A stretch of DNA of 64,000 nucleotides from contig JBBTUE010000001.1 in assembly GCA_038063915.1 (NCBI GenBank), positions 23,619 to 87,618 on the forward strand. The letters are read 5' to 3'. Positions 1-60,838 of the stretch are shown here, piece after piece. Position numbers and translations under genes: made by a program. Origin of the DNA: Patescibacteria group bacterium. Its GTDB lineage: Bacteria > Patescibacteriota > Minisyncoccia > Phycocordibacterales > UBA9973. The notes under the pieces are model-generated. The model ran no database searches and was not told the origin of the DNA. It worked only from the letters and a program-made list of their open reading frames with translations. Numbering within the stretch: position 1 is the stretch's first letter; the number at the start of each line of letters is the position of its first letter.

Positions 1-504
1 AATATCGTTAGTAAGTGAACAAAGCTCAGACACACGAAGACCCGTAGAGAATAAAAGTTCAAGAATGGATCTATCGCGCAGAGATTTTATGTCATCACCC
101 GGAGAAGCTTTGAGAAGGCGAGTAAGCTCACTACTAGAAATAAGATCAAGGTGACGCTCGGGCACTTTGGCTAAATCTATTTCTTCCGCGGACATTGATT
201 TTATATTTTTGCGAGTTAAATACTTCAAGAAAACACGAAGAGCTATCATGTAGTAATTCTGTGTCTTTCTTGAAACAGTTTTGCCCGTGGCTCTGTTGTT
301 GCCCATAGACTGGCGATTGAGCCACAACCGAAACTCGCGCACCGACGTGCTATCTATATCTTCCGGATTTTTAGCCTTTGAAAACTCTAAAAATCGAGTA
401 ATATAGTGGTCGTAATTCTCCACCGTTTTCAAGCTTCGGCCTTTTTCAATTTCTATATGTTCTAAAAATTCTCTCTTTAATTGTTCTAATTTATTAGTAG
501 CCAT
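1..504 (-). CDS. XerC/XerD-family tyrosine site-specific recombinase, N-terminal part (gene continues beyond window start)
   Basis: Minus-strand translation from ATG (504-502) gives MATNKLEQLKREFLEHIEIEKGRSLKTVENYDHYITRFLEF...SILELLFSTGLRVSELCSLTNDI. This is the SAM-like N-domain and the LLxxTGLRxSEL box typical of XerC/XerD. The ORF is open at position 1 and is absent from the ORF track because it is truncated. Confidence 0.7.
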   Translation of the reverse strand, partial: MATNKLEQLKREFLEHIEIEKGRSLKTVENYDHYITRFLEFSKAKNPEDIDSTSVREFRLWLNRQSMGNNRATGKTVSRKTQNYYMIALRVFLKYLTRKNIKSMSAEEIDLAKVPERHLDLISSSELTRLLKASPGDDIKSLRDRSILELLFSTGLRVSELCSLTNDI

Positions 505-564
505 ATTTATGCCTACACACCCTTGGAGTGTCGCACAATAATTTTACCACATTTTGTAATAAAA

Positions 565-594
565 ATAGCTACTTTAGTTAACTAAAGTAGCTAT
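565..594. promoter_or_regulatory. 30-bp perfect palindrome ATAGCTACTTTAGTTAACTAAAGTAGCTAT (11-6-11 architecture); intrinsic terminator for the 601-1497 gene and/or operator upstream of the xer-like gene
   Basis: Perfect inverted repeat followed on the minus strand by TTTTATT. Contains the AACTAAAGTA half-site twice (inverted), the same half-site found in the yerC-like promoter (3348-3375). Confidence 0.5.
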
Positions 595-600
595 TAATCC

Positions 601-1497
601 TCAAATGGATATACTTTTCAAGAAATCTATATAACTTCCAGATTCAGGTTGGCCTATAACCTTTCGTTCTATATCAGAACAATTAATAGCCTTGCTTGAA
701 GATTTTTCTATTTCTTTAAACAAAATTATTGTTTGATTTATACAAAATCTTGAAAATGCTTTGCGGAAACTCTTAGGAATAGAAGCCCACTCCTCCGGTT
801 CACCAAATGGTAATATATAAGGCAACCCTATATTTTTACTACCAGTTAAAGAACGTCCAGAAAATGGAATTCCAAGATAGAAATCTCTTTCACAAACTTC
901 GTCAATAACTTCATTATAGACTTTTGAACAGTGAATTTCTATTTTAGGATTAACATATGGATTGAGAACGAGATTAATTCCATTTTGTATCCCTATCCCA
1001 GCACAAATAATCGGGACACGAATCCCAATACGAGAAAGTAGTTTAAACACTCTCATCATAAAAACACCGGAGAAAATTACATCGTCCACCAAACACACCT
1101 CTTTAATTCCATGTGACTTTAATTGGTTCAACTGCTTTAAGAGTGAATAACTTCCAAAGCGACTTTGTAATCCTTTATTCACGCCTTGCAAATCGATCTT
1201 TCTGGTAAGTTCAATTGAAAAATCACAAGGGAAGTATACTGGATCAAGCGACACACAAGGTAAGTTGCTACTTTCTGTAACCATTTGCATATGACCTAAA
1301 ATTTCTTCTTCTGAAATAAATTCAAAGTCAGGAAATATCTGAAACATGTAATTTGAGAATTCCTTTCTTAACTCATCAAAGAATTCTTTTGTGGGTAAGA
1401 TAAAGCTTTTTTGCTTTGCCCATTTCTTAAGCAATAGATAAATGTCTGCTGAAACAACGTATTTCATATTTATAATTTTTAAGATGAAAGATAACAA
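601..1497 (-). CDS. hypothetical protein with type-I phosphoribosyltransferase-like PRPP-binding motif
   Basis: 298-aa ORF. The internal motif VCLVDDVIFSGVFMM resembles the PRTase PRPP loop (VLLVDDVxTTGxT). The rest is not assignable by eye. Palindromic hairpin plus U-tract at its 3' end (565-594). Confidence 0.4.
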   Translation of the reverse strand: MLSFILKIINMKYVVSADIYLLLKKWAKQKSFILPTKEFFDELRKEFSNYMFQIFPDFEFISEEEILGHMQMVTESSNLPCVSLDPVYFPCDFSIELTRKIDLQGVNKGLQSRFGSYSLLKQLNQLKSHGIKEVCLVDDVIFSGVFMMRVFKLLSRIGIRVPIICAGIGIQNGINLVLNPYVNPKIEIHCSKVYNEVIDEVCERDFYLGIPFSGRSLTGSKNIGLPYILPFGEPEEWASIPKSFRKAFSRFCINQTIILFKEIEKSSSKAINCSDIERKVIGQPESGSYIDFLKSISI

Positions 1498-2219
1498 TTA
1501 ATTTTTTGTTTTGAGAGTTTTTCAACATTCACAAAGAGACAGCCATCTTTTGTGCGTTTATAAGCATAAGGAAGAATGGGTATGTACTCTGTTGTTTCCG
1601 CCTTTATTGGTTTAAAACTATCGATATTTCTATTAAGTATATGGGGGAGTTCGCTTACCTTACCAATAACTCTATAGATAATTTTCTTATAAGATTTTGT
1701 TTTTTGCATATTGATATTTTCTAAAAAAATACGCAAGGTTCTTTCGAGTTCGTATTTGGCCTTTGGTATATTATTTAGTCCATATTCAATTTCAAATCCC
1801 GCACCTTTGAACAATTTTACGGAAGGTCCAGTTTTACTTTGGAGTGATTCCCATATTACTGTTTTTGGAATAGGTAATAACTCAGCAAGTTTGAATGAGT
1901 TTACTCGATTGATCTCATTACATAAGATAATGAATGGCTCATGTTTTTGTTTTGGTACCCCATGAATATCAACCACATAATCATATGCTTGCATGTAGTT
2001 GAATATTTTTAGAGCCCGTTTTTCTTCATAGGTACCACATTTTTTGCCCGGGAATACACGATTTAGATCAGATTCAATAAATCGAACGTTAGTCTTTATA
2101 GCTTTCGGATTACCAATAATATAGTCAAAGGATTTAAATTCTTTCCTTAACTTCTTAATCACAGAAATAGAATAATGTTCATTTCCGTGTGTGCCAACAA
2201 TGAATAGTAGTTTTTTCAT
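1479..2219 (-). CDS. AstE/AspA-family zinc hydrolase (succinylglutamate desuccinylase/aspartoacylase-like deacylase)
   Basis: N-terminal IVGTHGNEH (HxxE zinc ligands) and downstream DIHG motif characteristic of the AstE_AspA family. Overlaps the downstream gene by 19 nt, which suggests an operon. Confidence 0.5.
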   Translation of the reverse strand: MKKLLFIVGTHGNEHYSISVIKKLRKEFKSFDYIIGNPKAIKTNVRFIESDLNRVFPGKKCGTYEEKRALKIFNYMQAYDYVVDIHGVPKQKHEPFIILCNEINRVNSFKLAELLPIPKTVIWESLQSKTGPSVKLFKGAGFEIEYGLNNIPKAKYELERTLRIFLENINMQKTKSYKKIIYRVIGKVSELPHILNRNIDSFKPIKAETTEYIPILPYAYKRTKDGCLFVNVEKLSKQKINCYLSS

Positions 2220-2261
2220 TTTATTTGTTTTTAGTTATTAAATTTTCAAAGAACAATCTCT

Positions 2262-2292
2262 TCCTAAAAGAAAAACCTCTTCTGGGAAGAGG
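2262..2292 (-). terminator. Rho-independent terminator after the LOG-family gene
   Basis: CCTCTTC-TGG-GAAGAGG stem-loop followed by a U-tract on the minus strand. Confidence 0.5.
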
Positions 2293-2380
2293 TTGAGTGT
2301 AGAAAATTAAGTACTTTCAACAACCAGTCTCTTCTAAGAAAAGATGGGTGTGGTGAGCGGTATTTTTAATGTAATATCTT

Positions 2381-2920
2381 TTATTCATTATTCTTCTTAA
2401 TTAAAATGAGTATTTTTTCAACTGCCTCCTCTGGATTATCAACTCCTTCAATTTTTATTCTTTTCCTTTCGTCTAAGTACTGACCAGACAATTTATCACT
2501 CCACCCACCAGTATTTTTCATAGCAATAATTGGAATATTAGCTTGATAAGCAATTGCAATCTCAGTAAGTGTTCCAGAGCCTCCGCCAATTGTAATAATT
2601 CCGTCACAACTCAATATAAGAGCTGTTTCTCTACCACCACCCCTCTCGAGTCCTGTTGAAATAACAACATCCACATTTTCTTTCTCAAATATATCAAGCC
2701 CACGATTATATGTTAGACCCACAGTCAAACCACCTGCCTTTTTTGCTCCTCGGCAAGCTGCAGTAGAAAGTGAATCGTAATCTTTTTCCGCACCAAAAAT
2801 AAGAGTTGCACCATTTTTAGCAACTAGATAACCGATCTGTTCAGCTAGATTTTCTAATTTTTTTGAATAATTTAAGTCAGCTGCCGACCCCATAACGCCA
2901 ATTTGTATTTTTCTTTTCAT
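2381..2920 (-). CDS. TIGR00725/LOG-family Rossmann-fold nucleotide-binding protein (lysine-decarboxylase-like / nucleotide N-glycosidase family)
   Basis: 179 aa. GVMGSA N-terminus and ITIGGGSGTLTEIA (GGGxGT) motif of LOG/TIGR00725 proteins. Hairpin plus U-tract terminator downstream at 2262-2292. Confidence 0.55.
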   Translation of the reverse strand: MKRKIQIGVMGSAADLNYSKKLENLAEQIGYLVAKNGATLIFGAEKDYDSLSTAACRGAKKAGGLTVGLTYNRGLDIFEKENVDVVISTGLERGGGRETALILSCDGIITIGGGSGTLTEIAIAYQANIPIIAMKNTGGWSDKLSGQYLDERKRIKIEGVDNPEEAVEKILILIKKNNE

Positions 2921-2993: not shown

Positions 2994-3332
2994 TTAATTA
3001 CGCGTCAAAGACAATCCTTTCCCAAGTTTGGTAGGATTGTGATGATGATTTGATATACGAGAGAGGATAAGGCGATAGCCACCGAGCGAACCTTTGAGCC
3101 ATTTGGAGATGCGAGCAATGGTAGTAGAGGATAGGCCAGTTAGCTCTATAATCGAAGCATATTGAGTATCGCGGGAGAGTAGGCGAGCAGCTTCAAGGCG
3201 TTTGCCAAATTCTTCGATTTCGCCTGAAGTCATAAGATCGCGGAGAAAACGCTTGGCTTCATCTTTTGATTCCAAGGCTAAAATAGCATTTAAAAACTGA
3301 TTATTCTCTTTTTTACTCCAACTGGCTTCCAT
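2994..3332 (-). CDS. YerC/YecD-type Trp-repressor-like DNA-binding protein
   Basis: FLRDLMTSGEIEEFGKRLEAARLLSRDTQYASIIELTGLSSTTIARISKWLKGSLGGYRLILSR matches the YerC/YecD (TrpR-like, PF01371) pattern. Promoter with a palindromic operator lies immediately upstream (3339-3367). Confidence 0.6.
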   Translation of the reverse strand: MEASWSKKENNQFLNAILALESKDEAKRFLRDLMTSGEIEEFGKRLEAARLLSRDTQYASIIELTGLSSTTIARISKWLKGSLGGYRLILSRISNHHHNPTKLGKGLSLTRN

Positions 3333-3338
3333 ATATCC

Positions 3339-3367
3339 ACTTTATCGAACTAAAGTACTTTAGTCAA
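3339..3367 (-). promoter_or_regulatory. sigma70-like promoter of the yerC-like gene (-35 TTGACT, 17-nt spacer, -10 TAAAGT) with embedded 16-bp perfect palindrome ACTAAAGTACTTTAGT (3349-3364)
   Basis: Read on the minus strand: TTGACT-AAAGTACTTTAGTTCGA-TAAAGT, then 6 nt, then ATG (3332). The palindrome occupies the -35/spacer region, and a third AACTAAAGTA copy sits at 3366-3375. Flanked by inverted TATCCAC (3335-3341) / GTGGATA (3377-3383). Confidence 0.5.
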
Positions 3368-3417
3368 CTAAAGTATGTGGATAACTAATCTACATCAAAT
3401 AGGAAATGGGGCTGGGC

Positions 3418-3446
3418 TTGCAATTTTTTGTAAAATGTGCTAGTAT
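3418..3446 (+). promoter_or_regulatory. rpsO promoter (-35 TTGCAA, 17-nt spacer, extended -10 TGcTAGTAT)
   Basis: -10 ends 8 nt before ATG 3455 with no convincing SD. Confidence 0.4.
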
Positions 3447-3454
3447 ATAAGGGT

Positions 3455-3715
3455 ATGTTAACAACAAAGAAAAAGCAGAATATTATAAAGAAAAGCCAAA
3501 TTCACGATAAAGATACTGGCTCACCCGAAGTGCAGATAGCAATTCTAAGTAAAAAGATAGATGAGCTTGCCGTCCACCTAAAGGAACACAAAAAAGATAA
3601 CCACTCCCGCAGAGGTCTAATCAAGATGGTCGCAGATCGCCGAAAACATCTAAAACATCTAGAGAAGACAGACAAGACACGATTTGCAACTCAAACTAAA
3701 CTATTAAAAGCCTAA
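3455..3715 (+). CDS. rpsO: 30S ribosomal protein S15
   Basis: TGSPEVQIAILSKKIDELAVHLKEHKKDNHSRRGLIKMVADRRKHLKHL is the classic S15 signature. The track ORF starts at GTG 3437; the ATG at 3455 (MLTTKKK) fits S15 N-termini better. Terminator at 3721-3757. Confidence 0.9.
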   Translation: MLTTKKKQNIIKKSQIHDKDTGSPEVQIAILSKKIDELAVHLKEHKKDNHSRRGLIKMVADRRKHLKHLEKTDKTRFATQTKLLKA

Positions 3716-4330: not shown

Positions 4331-4768
4331 TTAGTGTAATAATTTATCCTCACTACCATCATTCCCATCATCTATAGGACTTACATTGTGCTCTACGCCG
4401 AAATCAATTGAGACTTTTACTAAATAGCCATCACTTCTTACATAGTGATCAGTGCGCTTACCATGGCCAAGCTCGGTATAGATGTGAGGACCTTTACTGC
4501 CTGGCTTATGCGTTCTTGAGTGATTGTAACTGAAAGTAGTCTTGTTCACTTCAGTAATTGCACACTCAATGTAGGTAAGTGGTTTACCTTTACCACTAAA
4601 ATATGTAAGTATCGCAGCATGTTTTTTCCCGACGCATTTTTTCAACAAGTGCTGCATCTTTAAAAGAACTTTAAGGTATGGACCACAGAATCTTAACGCA
4701 CATACCTGCTCTATAGGGAGTGACCCGAATCCAATAAATGATACATTATTTGCGGTTATAGTTTTCAT
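4331..4768 (-). CDS. hypothetical protein
   Basis: 145-aa ORF with no motif recognisable by eye (Cys/His-containing: CALRFCGPY, HYVRSDGY). A bidirectional hairpin terminator (4282-4310) lies between its 3' end and the NYN gene. Confidence 0.35.
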   Translation of the reverse strand: MKTITANNVSFIGFGSLPIEQVCALRFCGPYLKVLLKMQHLLKKCVGKKHAAILTYFSGKGKPLTYIECAITEVNKTTFSYNHSRTHKPGSKGPHIYTELGHGKRTDHYVRSDGYLVKVSIDFGVEHNVSPIDDGNDGSEDKLLH

Positions 4769-4973
4769 GCTAAAAGATTTAAAAGGTTTGTTTTTTCTTC
4801 ACTTTATACCTTAATTTAAAGTAAGTCAAAGTGTTAATTAGACCCTTTATAAAATAGTGTCTTTCTGCTATGCTATCGGTATTAGTAGATAATAATAGTT
4901 ATTCTCCAGACGGATAGAGTTGAAACCAATACAGAGTTTCAAAACTAGGGTCTGGAGGGGAGCTCATATATAT

Positions 4974-7103
4974 ATGCATAGGAAAGAATACGAGGTAGAA
5001 ATCGGTGGTAAGAAGATTACTGCTATTTTCAGTGATTTAGCAGAGCAAGCTAATGGCTCAGTCATGCTCGAGTGCGAGGGTACAGTAATTATGGCTACGG
5101 CTGTAATATCGAAAAGCGGAGAGAATAACCCGGGATTTTTTAACTTAACAGTTGAATACTTAGAGAAGTTCTACGCTTCCGGCAAGATTCTTGGCAGTCA
5201 ATTCATGCGCCGAGAGGGTAGACCATCGGACCAAGCCATACTCGCAGCTCGAATGACAGACCGTACTATCCGCCCACTTTTCGACCACCACATAAAAAAT
5301 GCAGTCCAAGTCATTATCACAGTCATTGCAATCGGCGGTGCTGACCCAAAAACTCTAGCAATCAACGCCGCATCTATAGTGCTTTATATATCAGATATCC
5401 CATGGAAAGGTCCTATTGGAGCAGTACATATAAGCAAAGCCCGTGGCGACTCTACATTAAAAGTAAATAATTATATTCCAAACTCTGATGAGGCAGTATA
5501 TGATCTTGATCTACTAGTATGTGGTAAAGAACAAACTATAAATATGATCGAGTCTATGGCATTTGAACTTGGTGAAGAAGAAATGGGTAAATGTTTTGAC
5601 ACTGCAATGGTTGAAATTACAAAGTGGGAAGAATTTCAAAAGAAACTAAAGAAAGAACTTGGTAAAGAAAAACTTCTATTTCCTAAATTAGAAACACCGA
5701 GTGAGGTAATAGAACTTTTTAACGAAAAGGTGAAACCTATCTTAGATAAAGGATTATTCAGTAAAGACAGCAAGAAAATTACTGCTGAGGCAGAAGTAGT
5801 TTGGAAAAATACTATTGATGAGAAATATGAGAAGGACGATATCCAATCAAAATATGTTGCCCATGACTATATGCATCATTATCTAGATCATGCATTTCAC
5901 AACGAAGCTATTCTAAATAACGCGCGCGCAGATGGTAGAGCTCTAGATGAAGTGCGTGGACTCTATGCGAAAGCTGGAGGAATATCTCCCTCCCTTCATG
6001 GTTCGGGAATATTTTATCGTGGTGAGACTCACGTCCTATCTGTACTTACCCTTGCAGGACCAGAGAGTATGCATACGATTGATGGCATAGAATTTTCTGC
6101 AAAGAAAAGATTCATGCATCATTATAATTTCCCTCCATATTCAAGTGGTGAGACTGGCCGTGTCGGTGCTACGAGTCGTAGAGAAATGGGCCACGGCTTC
6201 CTCGTTGAGAAAGCTCTGACTCCCGTCATGCCTGACAAAATCTTATTCCCATATACAGTACGTGTTGTATCCGAATCTGTAGCTTCAAACGGATCGACAT
6301 CCCAAGCATCAATTTGCGCTACAACTATTACCTTAATGGATGGAGGAGTGCCTATCAAGGCGCCGGTAGCTGGTATATCAATAGGTGCAATGATAGATGA
6401 AAAAGATAAAAATAAATACGTACTCCTCACTGACATCCAAGGGCCAGAAGATCACTACGGCGATATGGATTTCAAAGTAGCCGGAACTTCAGATGGTATC
6501 ACAGCCATACAGCTTGATGTAAAAGTAGATGGAATCCCAGCTTCTATTTTAAAAGAAGCTCTAACTCGTGCTAAAGTAGCAAGACTAAAAATCTTAGAAA
6601 CTATTAAAACAGAAATAGCTACACCACGCCCAAATATCTCACCAAACGCTCCGATGATACTCACTGTCAAAATCAAGAAAGATCAAATCGGTATGATTAT
6701 CGGCCCAGGAGGTAAGAATGTAAACGCAATTCGTGAAGAGACAGGAGCCGAAATTACAATTGAAGAAGACGGTACCGTATTTATCACTGGAAAAAATGGC
6801 GGAGCAGAGAAGGCCAAGAAAATTATTGAAGATATGACCCACGAGTACACAGTTGGTGACCTTGCCTCAGGTGAAGTAGTAAAGCTTATGGACTTCGGTG
6901 CATTCGTTAAAATAGCGACTGGCACAGAAGGGCTAGTGCACGTATCTGAAATTGCCCCATTCCGTGTAGAAAAAGTTTCTGATATTCTTAAGGAAGGCGA
7001 CAAGGTTCCAGTGAAGATAATAAAAGTAGATGAGAAGGGACGTTTGAATTTATCCATCAAAGAAGCTGACCCTAACTTCTTTAAACCAAATGGAGGAAAA
7101 TAA
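4974..7103 (+). CDS. pnp: polynucleotide phosphorylase (PNPase)
   Basis: Two RNase-PH-like domains, KH (IGMIIGPGGKNVNAIREETGAEI) and S1 (YTVGDLASGEVVKLMDFGAFVKI) domains. The track ORF starts at TTG 4920; the ATG at 4974 (MHRKEYEVEIGGKKI) aligns with PNPase N-termini. GGAGGGG lies upstream. Confidence 0.9.
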   Translation: MHRKEYEVEIGGKKITAIFSDLAEQANGSVMLECEGTVIMATAVISKSGENNPGFFNLTVEYLEKFYASGKILGSQFMRREGRPSDQAILAARMTDRTIRPLFDHHIKNAVQVIITVIAIGGADPKTLAINAASIVLYISDIPWKGPIGAVHISKARGDSTLKVNNYIPNSDEAVYDLDLLVCGKEQTINMIESMAFELGEEEMGKCFDTAMVEITKWEEFQKKLKKELGKEKLLFPKLETPSEVIELFNEKVKPILDKGLFSKDSKKITAEAEVVWKNTIDEKYEKDDIQSKYVAHDYMHHYLDHAFHNEAILNNARADGRALDEVRGLYAKAGGISPSLHGSGIFYRGETHVLSVLTLAGPESMHTIDGIEFSAKKRFMHHYNFPPYSSGETGRVGATSRREMGHGFLVEKALTPVMPDKILFPYTVRVVSESVASNGSTSQASICATTITLMDGGVPIKAPVAGISIGAMIDEKDKNKYVLLTDIQGPEDHYGDMDFKVAGTSDGITAIQLDVKVDGIPASILKEALTRAKVARLKILETIKTEIATPRPNISPNAPMILTVKIKKDQIGMIIGPGGKNVNAIREETGAEITIEEDGTVFITGKNGGAEKAKKIIEDMTHEYTVGDLASGEVVKLMDFGAFVKIATGTEGLVHVSEIAPFRVEKVSDILKEGDKVPVKIIKVDEKGRLNLSIKEADPNFFKPNGGK

Positions 7104-7995
7104 AAAACCTGAAAACTTAAATAACGAAGTAAAAACAATCCATACCTACACTACGGATATGGCTGAAGCTGTACGTGACAATGAGACATCTATCATAAAG
7201 ATAGCCCTGGCCGAAAAAGATAAGAGGGAGAGGGAAGAGGTCTATCAAGTAGCAAAAGGTACTCCGCTATCTAAAACCCTACTTCTCTTGGGAGGGTTAG
7301 TATTTACTGCGGTTGCAGTAATAACTTCCTATCTTATTATCAAAAAAAATAAAGAGAGTAACATTGTCCCACAAGCTGTGGTAGAAATCGTAGCTCCGAT
7401 ATCATACGACGACAAAGTATTTATAGATGTCACAGAAATATCTAGCCAAGTAGAGTTAGCGACTGCTATTAACAAGGAGGTGTCTAACCCAAACAAAGTA
7501 AGATCGATAAAATCAATATTCTTAAAAGAGATAGTAGGTGGGGTGCCCAAGCTAACAACTCTCAGTGAATTTCTCTCATTAATGAAAGTAAGTGCTCCGC
7601 AAGCTCTGACGAGGAATCTAGACGAGTCGTACATGATAGGAGTTTATACCCCTTTACCTGAGAATTCGGACAGGAATCATTTATTCCTAATACTAAAAAT
7701 CAGAGATTATAACCAAGCATATGCGTCGATGCTTACTTGGGAGAAGACAATACTCTCTGATATGTTTGCATTATTTGATATAAACGTAAGTGGTGAGAAG
7801 AGTGAACTTTTTGAAAAACCATGGGCTGATATAGTAATAAATAATAAGGACGCGCGAATCCTATACGATAAGACAGGTGAAGATATTTTGTACTATATAT
7901 TCCCAGATAAAAACACACTAATAATCACTGATAATCAGGATGCAATTAGAGAGATAGTTACTAGACTAATAGCTCGCACGACCAAGCCATTATAA
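7090..7995 (+). CDS. hypothetical membrane-anchored protein
   Basis: 301-aa ORF with one predicted TM segment (LLLLGGLVFTAVAVITSYLII). Overlaps the pnp stop by 14 nt. Confidence 0.4.
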   Translation: MEENKKPENLNNEVKTIHTYTTDMAEAVRDNETSIIKIALAEKDKREREEVYQVAKGTPLSKTLLLLGGLVFTAVAVITSYLIIKKNKESNIVPQAVVEIVAPISYDDKVFIDVTEISSQVELATAINKEVSNPNKVRSIKSIFLKEIVGGVPKLTTLSEFLSLMKVSAPQALTRNLDESYMIGVYTPLPENSDRNHLFLILKIRDYNQAYASMLTWEKTILSDMFALFDINVSGEKSELFEKPWADIVINNKDARILYDKTGEDILYYIFPDKNTLIITDNQDAIREIVTRLIARTTKPL

Positions 7996-36684: not shown

Positions 36685-37140
36685 TTACTGATTGATGTAT
36701 TTTATAACTACCCGACGAGTTGGGCCGTACCCTTCGGATTCTGTCTTTATATCCGTAGCTCCTTCTAGAAACATATGAATAATTCGACGCTCGTACGCTG
36801 GCATAGGATCAACTTCAATATTACTTTTAAAATACCTCGCACGTTCCGCCATCATATGAGCAATAGTTTTCAGACTATCAAAACGTTTTCTTTGATAGCC
36901 ATTCACGTCGATAAAAACCTTAGTTACTTCTTCTGGCAAAGAATCTTTCTCCGCTATCTTTTGAATTAGATGATTGAGTGATTTCAATGTCTCTCCGTCA
37001 CGACCTATCATAGCCCTTGAATCTGGAGTCTCTACCGCAAACCATAGCATCCCACCTTCCTCCTTAAATTCGCAACTCGAAATAGTGCAGTTTGTGTGTT
37101 TGAATATATCTTCTATAATTTTCTTTATTTTATCTTGCAT
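36685..37140 (-). CDS. jag: Jag/KhpB-family RNA-binding protein (Jag_N + KH + R3H)
   Basis: MIGRDGETLKSLNHLIQKI (KH-like) and YERRIIHMFLEG (R3H motif). Conserved position downstream of yidC. Confidence 0.75.
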   Translation of the reverse strand: MQDKIKKIIEDIFKHTNCTISSCEFKEEGGMLWFAVETPDSRAMIGRDGETLKSLNHLIQKIAEKDSLPEEVTKVFIDVNGYQRKRFDSLKTIAHMMAERARYFKSNIEVDPMPAYERRIIHMFLEGATDIKTESEGYGPTRRVVIKYINQ

Positions 37141-37148
37141 AATAAGGG

Positions 37149-37907
37149 TTATATTGAATCTTTAGATAATTTCCTCCTGATGTACCACTCTTGTACGATA
37201 GTGAATATATTACTTGTAATCCAATACAACGCAACCCCAGCAGAGATTGTGTAGGCTATGAAAGCTATGAATATTGGCAATATGTATTTTATATTCATCT
37301 GCATACTTTCAGACATTTGTTCTTGGAATGTCTTTGGTTCATTTTTATCTACCTCTTTAACTATTTCAGTTTTTGGTTTTAAAGGAGATGCTAAATACCC
37401 TTGGATAAATTGAGATACTCCGGCTAGTATAGCGAGGGCTATACTTTTACTATGAACATCTATGAGCCCGAGGAAATTTGTGTGGGGGGCTACAGGAATT
37501 TGCATAAACGAATATAGTGGACCAGTTGATATATCTAAACCTTTATAAAAAACATAGTACAGTGCAAAAATAAATGGTAGCTGAAGAAGCACCACTAGAC
37601 ATCCTGAGAAGGGATTGACTCCATACTTTTTATATAATTGAAACGTTTGCTTAGCTTGCTCTTCTTTATTTGGAAACTCTTTTTTAATACGCTTTAGATC
37701 AGGTTCAATGCGCTTCATCAATATCTGACTTTTTATAGATTTCTTTGTGAGAGGGAAAAGGACAAGTTTGACTAAAATAGTGAGCAGTATTATAGCAAAC
37801 CCAACATCGCCAAAGGTTATGTTATTTATTATAAAAACTAGCCCGTTATAGATTGGTTGGTAGAAGACAGTATTCCAAATTGCTTGCATTGGTCTATTGT
37901 ATATCAA
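37149..37907 (-). CDS. yidC: membrane protein insertase YidC/Oxa1 family (short form)
   Basis: GFAIILLTILVKLVLFPLTKKSIKSQILMKRIEPDLKRIKKEF...YKKYGVNPFSGCLVVLLQLPFIFALYYVF is the YidC 60-kDa-IMP core. Synteny rnpA-yidD-yidC-jag. Confidence 0.85.
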   Translation of the reverse strand: MIYNRPMQAIWNTVFYQPIYNGLVFIINNITFGDVGFAIILLTILVKLVLFPLTKKSIKSQILMKRIEPDLKRIKKEFPNKEEQAKQTFQLYKKYGVNPFSGCLVVLLQLPFIFALYYVFYKGLDISTGPLYSFMQIPVAPHTNFLGLIDVHSKSIALAILAGVSQFIQGYLASPLKPKTEIVKEVDKNEPKTFQEQMSESMQMNIKYILPIFIAFIAYTISAGVALYWITSNIFTIVQEWYIRRKLSKDSI

Positions 37908-38611: not shown

Positions 38612-38741
38612 AGAGAAAATATATACTATAATGCGCTATAATGCAATGTCCTCGTGGGTAAAAACATATCCACACATTATTAACAGGTTAATCCAGATAA
38701 CCAATTACTGTCGATTTATAAAACAGAGTATAATACGCACT
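38612..38741. other. rpmH-dnaA divergent intergenic region: candidate oriC/dnaA promoter with DnaA-box-like aTATCCACA (38666-38674) and TATAAT (38729-38734)
   Basis: Classic rpmH<->dnaA origin-proximal arrangement; 8/9 match to TTATCCACA. Confidence 0.4.
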
Positions 38742-40094
38742 ATGAATACAAAAGAGCTTTGGAATAACTGTCTTTCTGAGATTGAACTTAATATTTCAAA
38801 AGCAAATTTTACTACGTGGTTTAAAAACACATCAATAGTAAAAGAGGATGAGGGGACGCTTTTTATTGGTGTGCCAAACGAATTTGTTAAAGATTGGTTA
38901 TATAATAAATTTCACAAACTAATATTAAAAACACTTATAACACATGAAGAAGGTGTTAGAAATATTGAGTATATAATAGCGAAACACGAGCAAGTATCTA
39001 AATCCAGTGAGCAAGATTTTATAAGACAAACTACCAACACAAATAAAGAGCTACCCCTCAATGATCTATATATAAACAAGGACGACAACTTAAATCCTAA
39101 ATACAACTTTAACTCTTTTGTAGTGGGGCCGTTCAACGAGCTAGCTTACGCTGTTGCCCAAGCCATTATTACTAACCCGGGGCAGAATTATAATCCATTT
39201 TTCATTTATGGTGGTACTGGACTTGGTAAGACTCATATTATCCAAGCAATTGGTAATATTATAAAAACAAAGCACCCATCAAAAAAGATATACTACGTTA
39301 GTCTAGAGAGATTTGCTATTGATTATATTAACTCAATACAAAACAAAAATCCAAATTCATTTAAAGAAAAGTATAGAAAATACGACGTGATTATTATGGA
39401 TGATATCCAATTTATCTCTGGTAAGGATAAAACTCAAGAGGAGTTATTCCACTTATTTAATACTTTATATGAGAGCAATAAACAAATAATCTTCTCTTCA
39501 GACAAACACCCTAATTTCATACAAGGGCTAGAGGATAGACTACAATCCAGATTCGCTTCTGGTATGACTGTTCAAATCATTGAGCCTGATTATGAGTCAC
39601 GGGTTGCAATTATAAAGGCCAAATTTGAATCAACAAACTGTGTCGTTACAGATGATGTTATTTCATACCTGGCTGAATCCCTAGAGGGTAATATTCGTGA
39701 GCTTGAGGGTAGTTTAAACACAGTTATATGCCAATCTCAATTAAAGAACAAATCTCTAACCTTAGCTGAGGTAAAAACCCTAATAAAAAACAACATTAAA
39801 CCCAAAAAAACAGTAGCAATAAAGGATATTGTGCGTATTATCGCCACACACTATGGCATTTCAGAGGAAATAATTTACGAGAAAACTCGTAGAAAAGAAA
39901 TAGTTAGAGCTCGACAAGTTGCAATGTACATCCTGCGCGAGGACTTTAACATCTCTTACCCATTAATAGGTCAAAAGTTAGGTGGCCGTGACCACACAAC
40001 TGTTATTCACTCTCACTTAAAAATAAGGAGTGACCTAAAAACAGACCCGTCGTTATTACAAGAGATAGAGAAGATAAGAATTATGTTTAAGTAG
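38742..40094 (+). CDS. dnaA: chromosomal replication initiator protein DnaA
   Basis: AAA+ Walker A (IYGGTGLGKTHII), Walker B (VIIMDDIQFI), sensor and arginine finger (DRLQSRFASGMTVQI), and C-terminal DNA-binding domain (VRARQVAMYILRE...LIGQKLGGRDHTTVIHS). The ATG at 38742 (MNTKELWNNCLSEIE) is the likely start; TATAAT at 38729-38734. Confidence 0.9.
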   Translation: MNTKELWNNCLSEIELNISKANFTTWFKNTSIVKEDEGTLFIGVPNEFVKDWLYNKFHKLILKTLITHEEGVRNIEYIIAKHEQVSKSSEQDFIRQTTNTNKELPLNDLYINKDDNLNPKYNFNSFVVGPFNELAYAVAQAIITNPGQNYNPFFIYGGTGLGKTHIIQAIGNIIKTKHPSKKIYYVSLERFAIDYINSIQNKNPNSFKEKYRKYDVIIMDDIQFISGKDKTQEELFHLFNTLYESNKQIIFSSDKHPNFIQGLEDRLQSRFASGMTVQIIEPDYESRVAIIKAKFESTNCVVTDDVISYLAESLEGNIRELEGSLNTVICQSQLKNKSLTLAEVKTLIKNNIKPKKTVAIKDIVRIIATHYGISEEIIYEKTRRKEIVRARQVAMYILREDFNISYPLIGQKLGGRDHTTVIHSHLKIRSDLKTDPSLLQEIEKIRIMFK

Positions 40095-40300: not shown

Positions 40301-41398
40301 ATGAAAATAGAATGCTCAATAGATAAAATAAAAAACGCCCTGATCACAGTTGAAAGATTAACAGGAAAAAATCTTACATTACCAGTTCTTAGTTCAATTC
40401 TGTGGGTTGCGAATAATAAAATTCTTAAACTACGTGCCACAAACTTAAACATCGGTATAGAGATTAGTGTACCTTCTAAAATAGACAAAGAAGGTGTTAT
40501 TGCTATAAAAGGGGATGTATTATCGTCTCTTTTCTCTCAACTATCTGGAGAAGGCACAGTATATTTTGAGACTATAAATAATAATTTATCTGTTAAAACG
40601 AAACAAAATACTATTTTAATAAAAAGTGTTCCTTATGAGGATTTTCCAACAATACCAGTGATAACTGGCGATAGTATAACAATACCAACTCAAAAATTAA
40701 TAGAGGGAATAAAATCAGTCTACTACAGTTCTTCGACTTCTGAGATAAAACCAGAAATAGGGAGTGTTTATATATATCCAGAGAATGATTTATTAATTTT
40801 TGTTGCCACAGATTCTTTTCGTTTAGCCGAAAAGAAAATAAAAATAAAACAAAAACTATCCTTTCCAGGCATATTAATACCCTTCAAAAATACTACAGAA
40901 ATAATCAGAGTTTTTGAAAATACTACCGAAGATGTAAAAATTACACTCCAAAAAAACCAAATATCTTTTACAACATCTAGCATATACTTAACATCTAGAG
41001 TGGTAGATGGGTCGTTCCCCGACTACAAACAGATAATACCAAAAGAGTCTAGTACTGAAGCCGTTATTCTAAAACAAGACTTAATATCCTCTCTAAAGAT
41101 TTCAAATGTGTTTTCTGATAAATTTAACCAAATAACGGTCATAATAAAACCACAAGAAAAATCTTTCGAGATTGAGGCTAGAAACGTAGATGTAGGTGAA
41201 AACACAACCTCTGTCGGGGGGGCTCTTTCAGGGGAAGATGTCTCAGTTAATTTTAATTATAAGTATATATTAGACTGTTTTCAGTCAGTAACATCTGATA
41301 GTTTAAATTTAAAATTAAATGGGAATAACAAGCCGATGATCATAGAGCCAGTAGGTGACACATCTTTTAGGTATTTAATAATGCCAATGAATAAATGA
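40301..41398 (+). CDS. dnaN: DNA polymerase III beta subunit (sliding clamp)
   Basis: 365 aa with a three-domain beta-clamp pattern (MKIECSIDKIKNALITVERLTGK...; domain-3 LNLKLNGNNKPMIIEP). Synteny with dnaA. Confidence 0.9.
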   Translation: MKIECSIDKIKNALITVERLTGKNLTLPVLSSILWVANNKILKLRATNLNIGIEISVPSKIDKEGVIAIKGDVLSSLFSQLSGEGTVYFETINNNLSVKTKQNTILIKSVPYEDFPTIPVITGDSITIPTQKLIEGIKSVYYSSSTSEIKPEIGSVYIYPENDLLIFVATDSFRLAEKKIKIKQKLSFPGILIPFKNTTEIIRVFENTTEDVKITLQKNQISFTTSSIYLTSRVVDGSFPDYKQIIPKESSTEAVILKQDLISSLKISNVFSDKFNQITVIIKPQEKSFEIEARNVDVGENTTSVGGALSGEDVSVNFNYKYILDCFQSVTSDSLNLKLNGNNKPMIIEPVGDTSFRYLIMPMNK

Positions 41399-58687: not shown

Positions 58688-59251
58688 ATGAGACTAGCAA
58701 AACATAAAATATCATTAGGTGGGAAAAAATTAGAAATCGAGGTTGCTTATTTAGACAAGAAAGACGGGAAGATTTTTAAAAAACTTTTTGATATTTGGAG
58801 AAAGTTAAATATAGGACTTGAAAAGTATGGAAGAAAAGTAAATATTCCTGAGGTTATATCTGAAGGAATGTTCTGTGTTTTTTCTAGCTCTGTTCGTTAC
58901 CAAAAAAAATTAAAAGGGGAGGGGACAGTTTCTTTCGATACAATTAATATAAAAAATCAAAGAAGAGAGCAAATAAAAGCGTCTAGTATAGAAGAAGATT
59001 TAACTTCTTTTGGACCAAGAACTGAATGGGACGATTTGTATTTTCTGGATTTTTTCAATAATGGGAAATTAGATGGAACTTTTAACGTTTACTTAATTCC
59101 AAATAAATTGATATATTCAAATGCTGTGAATAAAGGTCAAACCATGAAAGATCAACAAGGGGAAAAACGCAGACCTCGTTTCAGTATAAAGAAAGATATT
59201 ATTGATAAATATAAAATTAAACCTAAAGCTAAGAATGTGAAGGTTTGGTAA
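58688..59251 (+). CDS. hypothetical protein; candidate Type II restriction endonuclease partner of the adjacent C5-methyltransferase
   Basis: 187-aa ORF with no family motif recognisable. Convergent with the MTase gene, stop codons abutting (TAA 59249-59251 / TTA 59252-59254). No Vsr CFWHxH motif. Confidence 0.25.
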   Translation: MRLAKHKISLGGKKLEIEVAYLDKKDGKIFKKLFDIWRKLNIGLEKYGRKVNIPEVISEGMFCVFSSSVRYQKKLKGEGTVSFDTINIKNQRREQIKASSIEEDLTSFGPRTEWDDLYFLDFFNNGKLDGTFNVYLIPNKLIYSNAVNKGQTMKDQQGEKRRPRFSIKKDIIDKYKIKPKAKNVKVW

Positions 59252-60838
59252 TTATTCCATCGCTTTCATCATTTGTTTCGCTACAGCCTCAACCACAGGA
59301 ACACTCACAGAGTTTCCTGCTTGTTTATATAGAGCTGAGTCAGAGATTTTTGGCAAAATATAATCTTTTGGGAATCCTTGAATTCTAAAGCATTCTAAAG
59401 GAGTAAGTTTTCGTATGCCTATTTTGTCTTTTATAATAGGCACGTTGTGCCCACCCATTCCCATATTTGCTGTTAATGTTGGGCAAACCCCACTTTTGTT
59501 TTCTCTTACATATTGTCTACGCCATTGATATACTTTACCTTCCTCTTTTATATCTTTCTTAAGTTTTTCAAAAAGAGGTTTACCATTGTAATAATATTTT
59601 TCAGGCACGTTTTTCTCTAATATATCGGTGATTTTTTTAGTTAGTTTGATTGGGTGAGGGAATTCAAATTTTTCAGAATAATCCTTATTTTTAAAACCCA
59701 CTATATAAATGCGCTCTCTATTCTGTGGGATATTCCCATATTCCATGCTATTTAGAATTTTTGATTTTACAAAATACCCCATTTCCTTTAATCTTTCCTC
59801 AATAACTTTAAAAGTATTGCCTCCGTCATGACTTTTCAAATTCTTAACATTTTCTAAAAGAAATCCTTCAGGTTTTCTTTCTTCTAAAATCTCTGCCAGT
59901 TTATTAAATAAATTTCCTCTACCTTTTTCATCATCAAAACCTTTTCTATATCCAGCTATTGAAAACGGTTGGCAAGGGAATCCTGCCAAAAGGAAATCAA
60001 ATTTAGGTAAATCATCTATGCCAAGTACATTTAAGTCTTCTACTACAAGTTTTGAGTCCTTAAAATTTAAATCATATGTTTGCCTGCAAGGTTCATCGAA
60101 ATCATTTGCAAAAACTGTTTTAAACCCAGCGTTCTCAAATCCTAAGCGTATTCCACCTACACCTGCAAACAGATCAATTGTTTTAAACCCATGTTTAGTC
60201 TTTTTCGCAACTGACTTTTCTGGCTTATTAGTGATATTACTTATAACTTGAACAACAATACCTCGCACCTCAACATCTGTTCTAAATAGTGTAGGCATAT
60301 TTGGGTTTCTTGGTTCAAGGTTAAAACCTTTTCCTTTTCTATAAAGTTTTTTTAATGTCGCTTCGTTATCGTCAATAATAGCCACAACAGTCTGACCATT
60401 TTCAGCAACAGATTGGTTTTTTATTATCACAATATCACCATCAAAAATACCGTCATCTATCATAGAATCTCCAACGACACGTAGTGCGTAATATCCTTCT
60501 GACGATCTAATTTGTGGATTTATGACAGAAACTGAGCCATCTCTTTCTTCTATTGCTGGGAGTGGGTATCCAGCTTTAATGCTTCCAAGTATTGGAATTT
60601 CAATTACTGGTCTAATTTCTTTTTTTAAAATTAAGCTCCTAGCCGAATTATTAGACTTCGAAAGATACCCTTTTGATTTTAGAGAATTTATATGTTCATG
60701 TATCGTAGAAACTGCTTTTAGTTTTAACCTTTTTCGTATTTCTTCGATGGTAGGGGATATACCGTTTTCCTGAGTATAATTATCTATAAAATCTAATACA
60801 TTTTTTTGTTTTCTTGTTATTGTCTTCATATTTATCAT
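59252..60838 (-). CDS. LexA repressor (wHTH + S24 peptidase) fused to DNA (cytosine-5)-methyltransferase
   Basis: Continuous 528-aa ORF. N-terminal LexA (RKQKNVLDFIDNYTQENGISPTIEEIRKRL...; AG bond in SIKAGYPLP; VVGDSM Ser; ATLKKL Lys). C-terminal C5-MTase motifs I DLFAGVGG, IV GFPCQPFS, VI ENVKNL, VIII QNRERIYIVG, IX-X RKLTPLECFRIQGFP / QAGNSVSVPV. Confidence 0.75.
   Translation of the reverse strand: MINMKTITRKQKNVLDFIDNYTQENGISPTIEEIRKRLKLKAVSTIHEHINSLKSKGYLSKSNNSARSLILKKEIRPVIEIPILGSIKAGYPLPAIEERDGSVSVINPQIRSSEGYYALRVVGDSMIDDGIFDGDIVIIKNQSVAENGQTVVAIIDDNEATLKKLYRKGKGFNLEPRNPNMPTLFRTDVEVRGIVVQVISNITNKPEKSVAKKTKHGFKTIDLFAGVGGIRLGFENAGFKTVFANDFDEPCRQTYDLNFKDSKLVVEDLNVLGIDDLPKFDFLLAGFPCQPFSIAGYRKGFDDEKGRGNLFNKLAEILEERKPEGFLLENVKNLKSHDGGNTFKVIEERLKEMGYFVKSKILNSMEYGNIPQNRERIYIVGFKNKDYSEKFEFPHPIKLTKKITDILEKNVPEKYYYNGKPLFEKLKKDIKEEGKVYQWRRQYVRENKSGVCPTLTANMGMGGHNVPIIKDKIGIRKLTPLECFRIQGFPKDYILPKISDSALYKQAGNSVSVPVVEAVAKQMMKAME

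Follow-up and report, generated by a model that had tools for sequence, protein, structure and literature searches.

Patescibacteria have tiny genomes and few regulators, and to our knowledge almost nothing is known about how transcription is regulated in them. The DNA considered here, 64,000 nucleotides of a Patescibacteria group bacterium (GenBank assembly GCA_038063915.1, contig JBBTUE010000001.1, positions 23,619 to 87,618 of the forward strand; hereafter the window), raises the question of what a dense block of inverted repeats is doing in the promoter of a yerC-like gene, which encodes a 112-residue regulator of the TrpR family. A first-pass annotation of the window had read this block as a probable autoregulatory operator centered on a 16-bp perfect palindrome. 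We propose that the repeats at 3339-3374 are, very probably, two abutting 18-bp operators of the repressor HisR, and that this HisR is encoded by the gene immediately downstream. The block is conserved upstream of yerC homologues, it matches the published HisR motif, and it does not belong to a genome-wide repeat, all of which is consistent with an autoregulatory operator, although the unit to which the repressor is predicted to bind has to be redrawn.

The identity of the protein is the first piece of this assignment. The 112-residue sequence matches the Pfam model Trp_repressor (1.8e-16) and passes the NCBIfam YerC/YecD model TIGR02531, with 62.4 bits (cut-off 42.2). Its relatives of solved structure are 3KOR, 3FRW and 3G1C, found at about 1e-10 to 1e-11, and the last of these, from E. 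eligens, has been treated as HisR (PMC9413887). A protein identical to it carries the label Patescibacteria group bacterium, and hundreds of homologues with 70-88% identity are found in Paceibacteria and Nomurabacteria assemblies. We assign the protein to the YerC/YecD (HisR) subfamily, with a predicted TrpR fold. E. coli TrpR itself is a useful precedent, since it shares the fold and the helix-turn-helix, binds a roughly 20-bp palindrome lying over the promoter, needs its co-repressor amino acid for binding and represses its own gene. The TrpR motif, TGTAcTnGTnnACnAgTACA, is nevertheless built of GNACT half-sites, and HisR has not retained the residues with which TrpR contacts tryptophan. We rejected TrpR proper as an identification because the protein falls below the cut-off of the TrpR equivalog model TIGR01321 (22.5 bits versus 67.25) and because the half-sites here are ACTTTA and not GNACT.

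YerC of B. subtilis, a TrpR-family repressor that responds to histidine, has been named HisR (Ashniev et al. 2022, PMC9413887). Across Firmicutes, Actinobacteria and Synergistetes the HisR motif is a 20-bp palindrome, cacTTTAnnnnnnTAAAgtg, that is, cacTTTA-N6-TAAAgtg, and autoregulation was predicted in 183 genomes (PMC9413887). In fluorescence polarisation experiments, HisR of R. gnavus bound the site CAGTTTAGTATAGTAAAGT in vitro only in the presence of histidine, and HisR paralogues with altered roles have also been reported (PMC9413887). The boxes described here match the consensus cacTTTAnnnnnnTAAAgtg base for base, and the R. gnavus site is almost identical to them. The likeness to published HisR therefore extends from the protein family (TIGR02531, 3G1C) and the palindromic motif to the presence of a site ahead of the regulator gene itself, which implies autoregulation, and to a link with his genes in relatives of the window.

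How the repeats are arranged becomes clear once all half-sites are counted. On the minus strand, TTGACT (3367-3362) and TAAAGT (3344-3339) are separated by 17 nt, and these -35 and -10 elements, the 16-bp palindrome ACTAAAGTACTTTAGT at 3349-3364, a third half-site, AACTAAAGTA, at 3366-3375 and a GTGGATA at 3377-3383 are all present as first described. A fourth half-site, GATAAAGT, had been overlooked, and it is the -10 element itself. The four half-sites resolve into two abutting 18-bp boxes, a distal box 1 and a promoter-proximal box 2 (Table 1); together with a third box elsewhere in the window they read tACTTTAGTCAACTAAAGTa, cACTTTATCGAACTAAAGTa and tACTTTAGTTAACTAAAGTa. The predicted binding unit is ACTTTA-N6-TAAAGT or, in fuller form, (c/t)ACTTTA-N6-TAAAGT(g/a). 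The 16-bp palindrome, which had been taken for the operator, is the junction of two such units, where the right arm of box 1 meets the left arm of box 2, and we rejected it as the binding unit because isolated sites always occur in the ACTTTA-N6-TAAAGT register, as does the published motif.

Within the window these sites stand far above background. In the 64 kb, the 20-mer TACTTTAGTYAACTAAAGTA is confined to 570-589 and 3356-3375, where shuffled sequences of the whole window lead one to expect 0.03 occurrences and no shuffle reached the observed count. A position weight matrix trained on sites from relatives scores the three boxes of the window at 24.5-29.9 bits, with the next best site at 7.4 bits and a mean of 8.8 bits for the maxima of shuffled sequences; no further box rises above noise anywhere in the window. 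The bare 10-mer half-site, at up to one mismatch, shows no enrichment (14 sites versus 11 expected in the window); it is the paired arrangement that carries the signal. With three sites in 64 kb, the motif does not behave as a common repeat unrelated to promoters, and on this count the operator assignment stands.

Comparison of orthologous promoters, the second count on which the operator assignment could have failed, upholds it as well. A scan of species-representative genomes yielded 80 loci with homologues 42-87% identical to the protein, and 81 with the window included; a box was counted as lying upstream of yerC if it had at most two mismatches and was within 400 nt. By this measure the motif, with its promoter, is found upstream of the yerC homologue in 75 of the 81 loci, reaching homologues with as little as about 45% protein identity, and in the loci that carry one there the box overlaps either the -35 and -10 elements or the -10 element and the start site. 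Two boxes lie exactly 18 bp apart in 48/81 loci, other offsets being uncommon, and the promoter TTGACT, 17 nt, TAAAGT is conserved in 47/81. The exact 16-mer junction recurs in 21 loci, each time at the yerC promoter. More distant relatives (Doudnabacteria, Falkowbacteria, Gracilibacteria-labelled and other genomes) have a different promoter, TTGACA, about 17 nt, TATACT, and there it is the left arm of the box that overlaps the -10 element and the start site. The predicted operator thus keeps its place over the promoter while the promoter itself is replaced, which is as expected of a repressor site and unlike what would be expected of a mere promoter.

These comparisons also bear on the possibility that the block is just a strong and unusual promoter whose symmetry is incidental and to which no repressor binds. 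Both hexamers do lie inside boxes, the TTGACT-17-TAAAGT arrangement is the conserved one in those 47 loci, and a second TTGACT-N17-TAAAGT, at 4801-4829, occurs in the window without a proper box. We nonetheless consider this explanation very unlikely, since isolated boxes are found away from any -35/-10 pair (the third box of the window, additional copies further upstream at some yerC loci and sites between convergent genes), since the distant relatives have switched promoters and kept the palindrome over the -10 element and start site, since the palindrome equals a motif that HisR binds in vitro (PMC9413887), and since the 18-bp offset is invariant in the 48 loci that have it. The site at 4801-4829 (minus strand) lies upstream of ORF 4331-4768, which encodes 145 residues without a family match, and its half-sites are wrongly spaced, as ACTTTA-N10-TAAAGT; it could be a box that has decayed or a variant of one, and we did not accept it as an additional HisR box because of that spacing.

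Based on this anatomy, we propose that one HisR dimer would occupy each box. Box 1 would cover the -35 element and box 2, which supplies the -10 element, would bring the second dimer to within 6 nt of the ATG, and the two dimers together would blanket the promoter from upstream of the -35 element to the -10 element. With co-repressor bound, the occupied boxes are expected to shut out RNA polymerase, such that the gene would repress itself and yerC would be under negative autoregulation. By analogy with HisR of Ruminococcus gnavus, L-histidine is probably the co-repressor needed for binding. The fixed 18-bp offset of the boxes suggests that the two dimers contact each other. Because the ATG lies only 6 nt past the -10 element, the yerC mRNA is probably leaderless, with transcription starting at the ATG; an in-frame start codon 6-10 nt past the -10 element in 44 of the 47 loci with the TTGACT-17-TAAAGT promoter likewise implies a leaderless message. 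The divergent rpsO gene has a similar look (3418-3457, plus strand), with TTGCAA, 17 nt, TAGTAT and an ATG 8 nt past the -10 element, and a comparable TAGTAT, 8 nt, ATG arrangement precedes the SLOG-like gene at 2920. As the -10 element of rpsO also lies close to its ATG, leaderless-looking starts may be common in the source organism.

The gene neighborhoods of the relatives connect the regulator to histidine. Adjoining yerC we find hisG in 11 loci, hisS in 8, hisD in 7 and hisIE in 7; in several relatives yerC heads a his operon, and one locus has the order yerC-hisS-hisG-hisIE-hisD-aminotransferase (L016). A separate box precedes hisS in another locus (L075). In yet another (L003), a gene of the histidine ammonia-lyase family (Pfam Lyase_aromatic, 6373-7929) lies 1 kb downstream of yerC and contains an internal HisR box with one mismatch at 7326.

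Several observations weigh against the HisR assignment as we have stated it. The aligned stretch of the recognition helix reads STTIAR here and TATISR in 3KOR. No his gene was found by tblastn in the 64-kb window, and the closest syntenic relatives place yerC between rpsO and xerC and not beside his genes; it is therefore conceivable that the effector or the regulon could have shifted in the source lineage. Because box 2 doubles as the -10 element, its conservation could in part be due to promoter function alone. Finally, the third box of the window and its relatives in three other loci (L017, L023, L025) look like terminators, a matter to which we return below.

Taking both sides together, the repeats at yerC are best described as the known HisR self-regulation circuit, predicted here from DNA alone and newly documented for Patescibacteria. 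This phylum is absent from the published HisR study (PMC9413887), and literature searches returned no paper on HisR, YerC or TrpR in Patescibacteria. Some features nevertheless appear to be specific to the lineage. The two boxes abut at 18 bp and themselves form the -35 and -10 elements of a probably leaderless promoter, whereas tandem sites are absent from the main text of the published work (PMC9413887). In addition, a DnaA-box 9-mer accompanies the promoter, and a box-bearing hairpin that resembles a terminator lies where the downstream cluster ends. The window also differs from the published systems in its lack of his genes and in its SLOG-like, AstE-like and phosphoribosyltransferase-like neighbors.

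Table 1. Positions in the window of the yerC/hisR-like gene, its promoter elements and the features downstream of it; HisR boxes are predicted sites.
Feature	Position	Strand	Remarks
yerC/hisR-like gene	2994..3332	minus	112 aa, TrpR-family regulator
ATG start codon of yerC-like gene	3330..3332	minus	6 nt after -10
TATCCAC, proximal arm of the flanking repeat	3334..3340		box 2 flank (TAAAGTGG) plus bases before ATG
-10 hexamer TAAAGT	3339..3344	minus	promoter scan and conservation
HisR box 2 (promoter-proximal)	3339..3356		minus-strand reading ACTTTAGTTCGATAAAGT; right half is the -10; matrix score 24.5 bits
HisR box 1 (distal)	3357..3374		minus-strand reading ACTTTAGTTGACTAAAGT; contains the -35; matrix score 27.7 bits
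-35 hexamer TTGACT	3362..3367	minus	promoter scan and conservation
DnaA-box 9-mer TTATCCACA (TGTGGATAA on the plus strand)	3376..3384	minus	8 nt upstream of -35
SLOG/TIGR00725-like gene	2381-2920	minus	Pfam and NCBIfam matches
AstE/AspA-like gene	1479-2219	minus	Pfam and NCBIfam matches
Weakly phosphoribosyltransferase-like ORF	601-1497	minus	Pfam and NCBIfam matches
32-bp perfect palindrome with HisR box 3 (core 571-588)	564..595	minus	5 nt past stop of ORF 601-1497
Extended -10 TGGTAAAAT of xerC-like promoter	541..549	minus	conserved TGnTAnAAT
xerC/xerD-like tyrosine recombinase gene	1..504	minus	runs off window; Pfam Phage_int_SAM and Phage_integrase

The pair TATCCAC and GTGGATA had been thought to bracket the whole block as a single unit. 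Both sequences are present, TATCCAC at 3334-3340 and not at 3335-3341, but they do not belong together. The distal arm, GTGGATA, is contained in a 9-mer at 3376-3384 that matches the DnaA-box consensus perfectly and is one of two such matches in the window (3376 and 58157), whereas the proximal arm consists of box 2 flank and the bases leading up to the ATG. Relatives have TAAAGTGGA, TAAAGTAGC or other variants at the position of the proximal arm, followed by variable bases, and we rejected this TATCCAC as a DnaA box or separate element because it is not conserved among them.

The distal 9-mer is another matter. The 712 kb of loci contain 32 perfect 9-mers, and 21 of these fall in the 160 nt upstream of yerC; such stretches account for about 1.8% of the searched sequence, and by proportion about 0.6 copies would be expected in them. 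With up to one mismatch allowed, the 9-mer is found at discrete distances from the -35 element in 29 of the 47 TTGACT-type promoters: in forward orientation at 8-9 nt (5 loci) or at 17-19 nt (17 loci), and in reverse orientation at 3-7 nt (7 loci). The two forward classes are about 10 nt, or about one helical turn, apart. The putative DnaA box thus accompanies the yerC promoter as a conserved accessory, with its spacing in discrete classes. In five loci (L015, L017, L020, L025 and L029) a further 'box 0' precedes the proximal box by about 55-60 nt. Because the right arm of box 0 runs straight into the DnaA-box 9-mer (TAAAGTTATCCACA), the ancestral order may have been box 0, DnaA box, box 1 and box 2.

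DnaA boxes can act at promoters away from the origin, and DnaA is a transcription factor for dnaA in E. coli and B. subtilis. The resemblance here lies in a perfect consensus 9-mer close ahead of a promoter, with conserved spacings; the difference is that this is one box, predicted from the DNA and outside any cluster. It is therefore fair to ask whether the block is primarily controlled by DnaA, with GTGGATA and TATCCAC as its boxes and DnaA in place of YerC as the main regulator. The perfect TTATCCACA, its concentration upstream of yerC and its constrained spacing from the -35 element are what such control would look like. Yet only the distal arm is conserved, the 9-mer is missing from 18 of the 47 promoters of the TTGACT class when HisR boxes are present at nearly all loci, it lies outside the core promoter, and dnaA, dnaN and the likely origin are 35 kb distant. 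We regard primary control by DnaA as unlikely, and DnaA is better seen as an accessory input to the HisR-controlled promoter than as a rival to HisR. No link between DnaA and hisR/yerC was found in literature searches, and we know of no report of one.

We also considered and rejected the yerC region as a replication origin, since it has a single DnaA box outside any box cluster, since dnaA-dnaN lies at 38.6-41.4 kb, which puts the likely origin 35 kb off, and since no switch in GC skew is specific to 3.3 kb. The genes dnaA (38631-40094) and dnaN (40301-41398) are both on the plus strand, and upstream of dnaA are a 151-aa ORF (36685-37140, minus strand) and a 252-aa ORF (37149-37907). The AT-rich spacer between dnaA and dnaN has imperfect DnaA boxes only (TGTGTATAA, TAATCCACA), and it is likely to be the origin.

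Downstream of yerC, the first-pass annotation had noted a distant 30-bp perfect palindrome at 565-594 carrying the same half-site. The palindrome is real and measures 32 bp, at 564-595. It holds box 3, which has the top matrix score in the window (29.9 bits) and is located 2.8 kb from the yerC promoter, at the end of the downstream cluster and just upstream of the xerC-like promoter. As RNA it would fold into a 14-bp hairpin (-18.5 kcal/mol, z -5.9) followed by the T-run UUUUUAUU on the minus strand, and a terminator scan flags it. Like an intrinsic terminator, it thus has a hairpin and a U-run directly after a stop codon. Its stem is, however, AT-rich, with only 4 of 14 pairs G-C, and an ordinary terminator would have no reason to be the best HisR box in the window. 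In the equivalent place, relatives have ordinary GC-rich terminators before the conserved xerC-like promoter. Boxes flanked by AGCT and followed by T-runs lie between convergent genes in four other loci (L015, L017, L023, L025), and in the L023 copy the hairpin is preserved through a G.U pair while the box consensus is broken. A metagenome collection contains AGCT-flanked boxes in 15 stretches of mixed context, which favor neither a terminator nor an operator role for box 3. Box 3 looks like the terminator of the yerC-proximal cluster and is very likely also bound by HisR. It may serve as an auxiliary operator, and it could affect xerC, act as a roadblock or provide an anchor for looping.

A perfect 32-bp palindrome with a T-run and such folding energy, and AGCT-flanked versions in varied intergenic contexts, are also what one might expect if the repeats belonged to a family of palindromic repeats or terminator hairpins, REP-like or MITE-like, that has landed near yerC by chance. 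This is highly improbable, given that the window has just three copies, that in 75 loci the copies at the promoter keep a constant position with respect to the yerC start, that the exact 16-mer junction is always at a yerC promoter in the 21 loci that have it, and that just 15 stretches of the AGCT-flanked form turn up in the entire metagenome collection.

The proximity of box 3 to a recombinase gene raises a further alternative, in which the XerC-like protein would use the inverted 20-mers at 570-589 and 3356-3375 as recombination sites, and these would bound an invertible or excisable cassette of 2.8 kb. The two copies are 95% complementary, they flank a four-gene segment and they adjoin the recombinase gene. 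Against this, boxes lie upstream of yerC in dozens of genomes that have no xerC nearby, a box precedes xerC only in the window and in L030 among the 8 syntenic loci with xerC, and gene order and orientation are identical in all syntenic relatives, with no inversion variant seen. Box 3 is, moreover, perfectly symmetric and so has no asymmetric core that could set the direction of a site. We consider an invertible or excisable cassette exceedingly improbable.

The occurrence in the window and L030 alone also led us to reject a box upstream of xerC as a conserved feature. What is conserved upstream of xerC-like genes is the extended -10 TGnTAnAAT followed by TATTGTGCGACAyT (530-549 in the window; also in L001-L004, L026, L028 and L030), and the latter may act as a leader or be bound by a protein. 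Counted from the predicted start site of the xerC-like gene, box 3 would have its core at about -54 to -37. In favor of an operator role for box 3, besides the box before xerC in L030, a 60-nt module consisting of the box, ATTTTTATTnCAAAA and the extended -10 is shared at about 90% identity by the window and one other locus (L082), although the genes downstream of it differ. Pointing the same way, boxes with clear promoter geometry precede a gene for a LysE-type transporter (L012), a SLOG gene (L031) and AstE-like genes (L040, L056).

The genes between box 3 and yerC, at 601..2920, may be co-regulated with yerC; rpsO, an NYN-domain gene and then pnp lie on its divergent side. SLOG or AstE genes are near yerC in 19 of the 81 loci (L028, L031, L040, L045, L055 and L056 among them), and they carry HisR boxes of their own in L031, L040 and L056. 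From this pattern, the SLOG and AstE-like genes look like a conserved module under HisR-type control. The SLOG/TIGR00725-like and AstE/AspA-like proteins are fused into one in L055, and a GNAT protein with a zinc-ribbon-like insert accompanies these genes in 8 loci. We also examined whether a phosphoribosyltransferase gene followed by a box forms a conserved pair. At a threshold of E below 1e-4, no homology is detected among the ORFs that come before the box in the window, in L017 and in L082, and we therefore rejected such a pair.

It is tempting to join these features into a composite switch at the hisR promoter of Paceibacteria, a reading that we hold only tentatively and regard as rather doubtful. 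In such a scheme, the DnaA box at its discrete spacings from the -35 element would let the replication initiator DnaA act on the hisR promoter. In genomes without his genes at hand, the regulon would have been rewired to the SLOG, AstE-like and phosphoribosyltransferase-like (and GNAT) module, and the HisR-box hairpin would mark the end of the cluster as both terminator and second repressor anchor. If this were true, replication or growth state would be tied to an amino-acid-sensing regulon.

Importantly, the assignment gives one of the most conserved regulators of Patescibacteria a name, HisR/YerC, a precise predicted operator and a probably leaderless promoter. It also leads to a first list of candidate HisR targets: his operons in some lineages, and the LysE-type transporter, SLOG and AstE-like genes in others, with boxes also before xerC-like genes. 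The boxes are ready-made DNA probes for binding assays, and the perfect DnaA box that accompanies the yerC promoter raises the testable side question of why it is there. For general biology, this extends a known circuit and adds no new principle.

Elsewhere in the window, a 528-aa protein (59252-60838, minus strand) combines a complete LexA module, consisting of the LexA DNA-binding domain and an S24 peptidase, with a C-5 cytosine DNA methyltransferase. Its gene adjoins one for a restriction endonuclease of the Bsp6I family (58688-59251, plus strand), and the methylase, with its self-cleaving type of LexA module, might tie this restriction-modification system to the SOS response.

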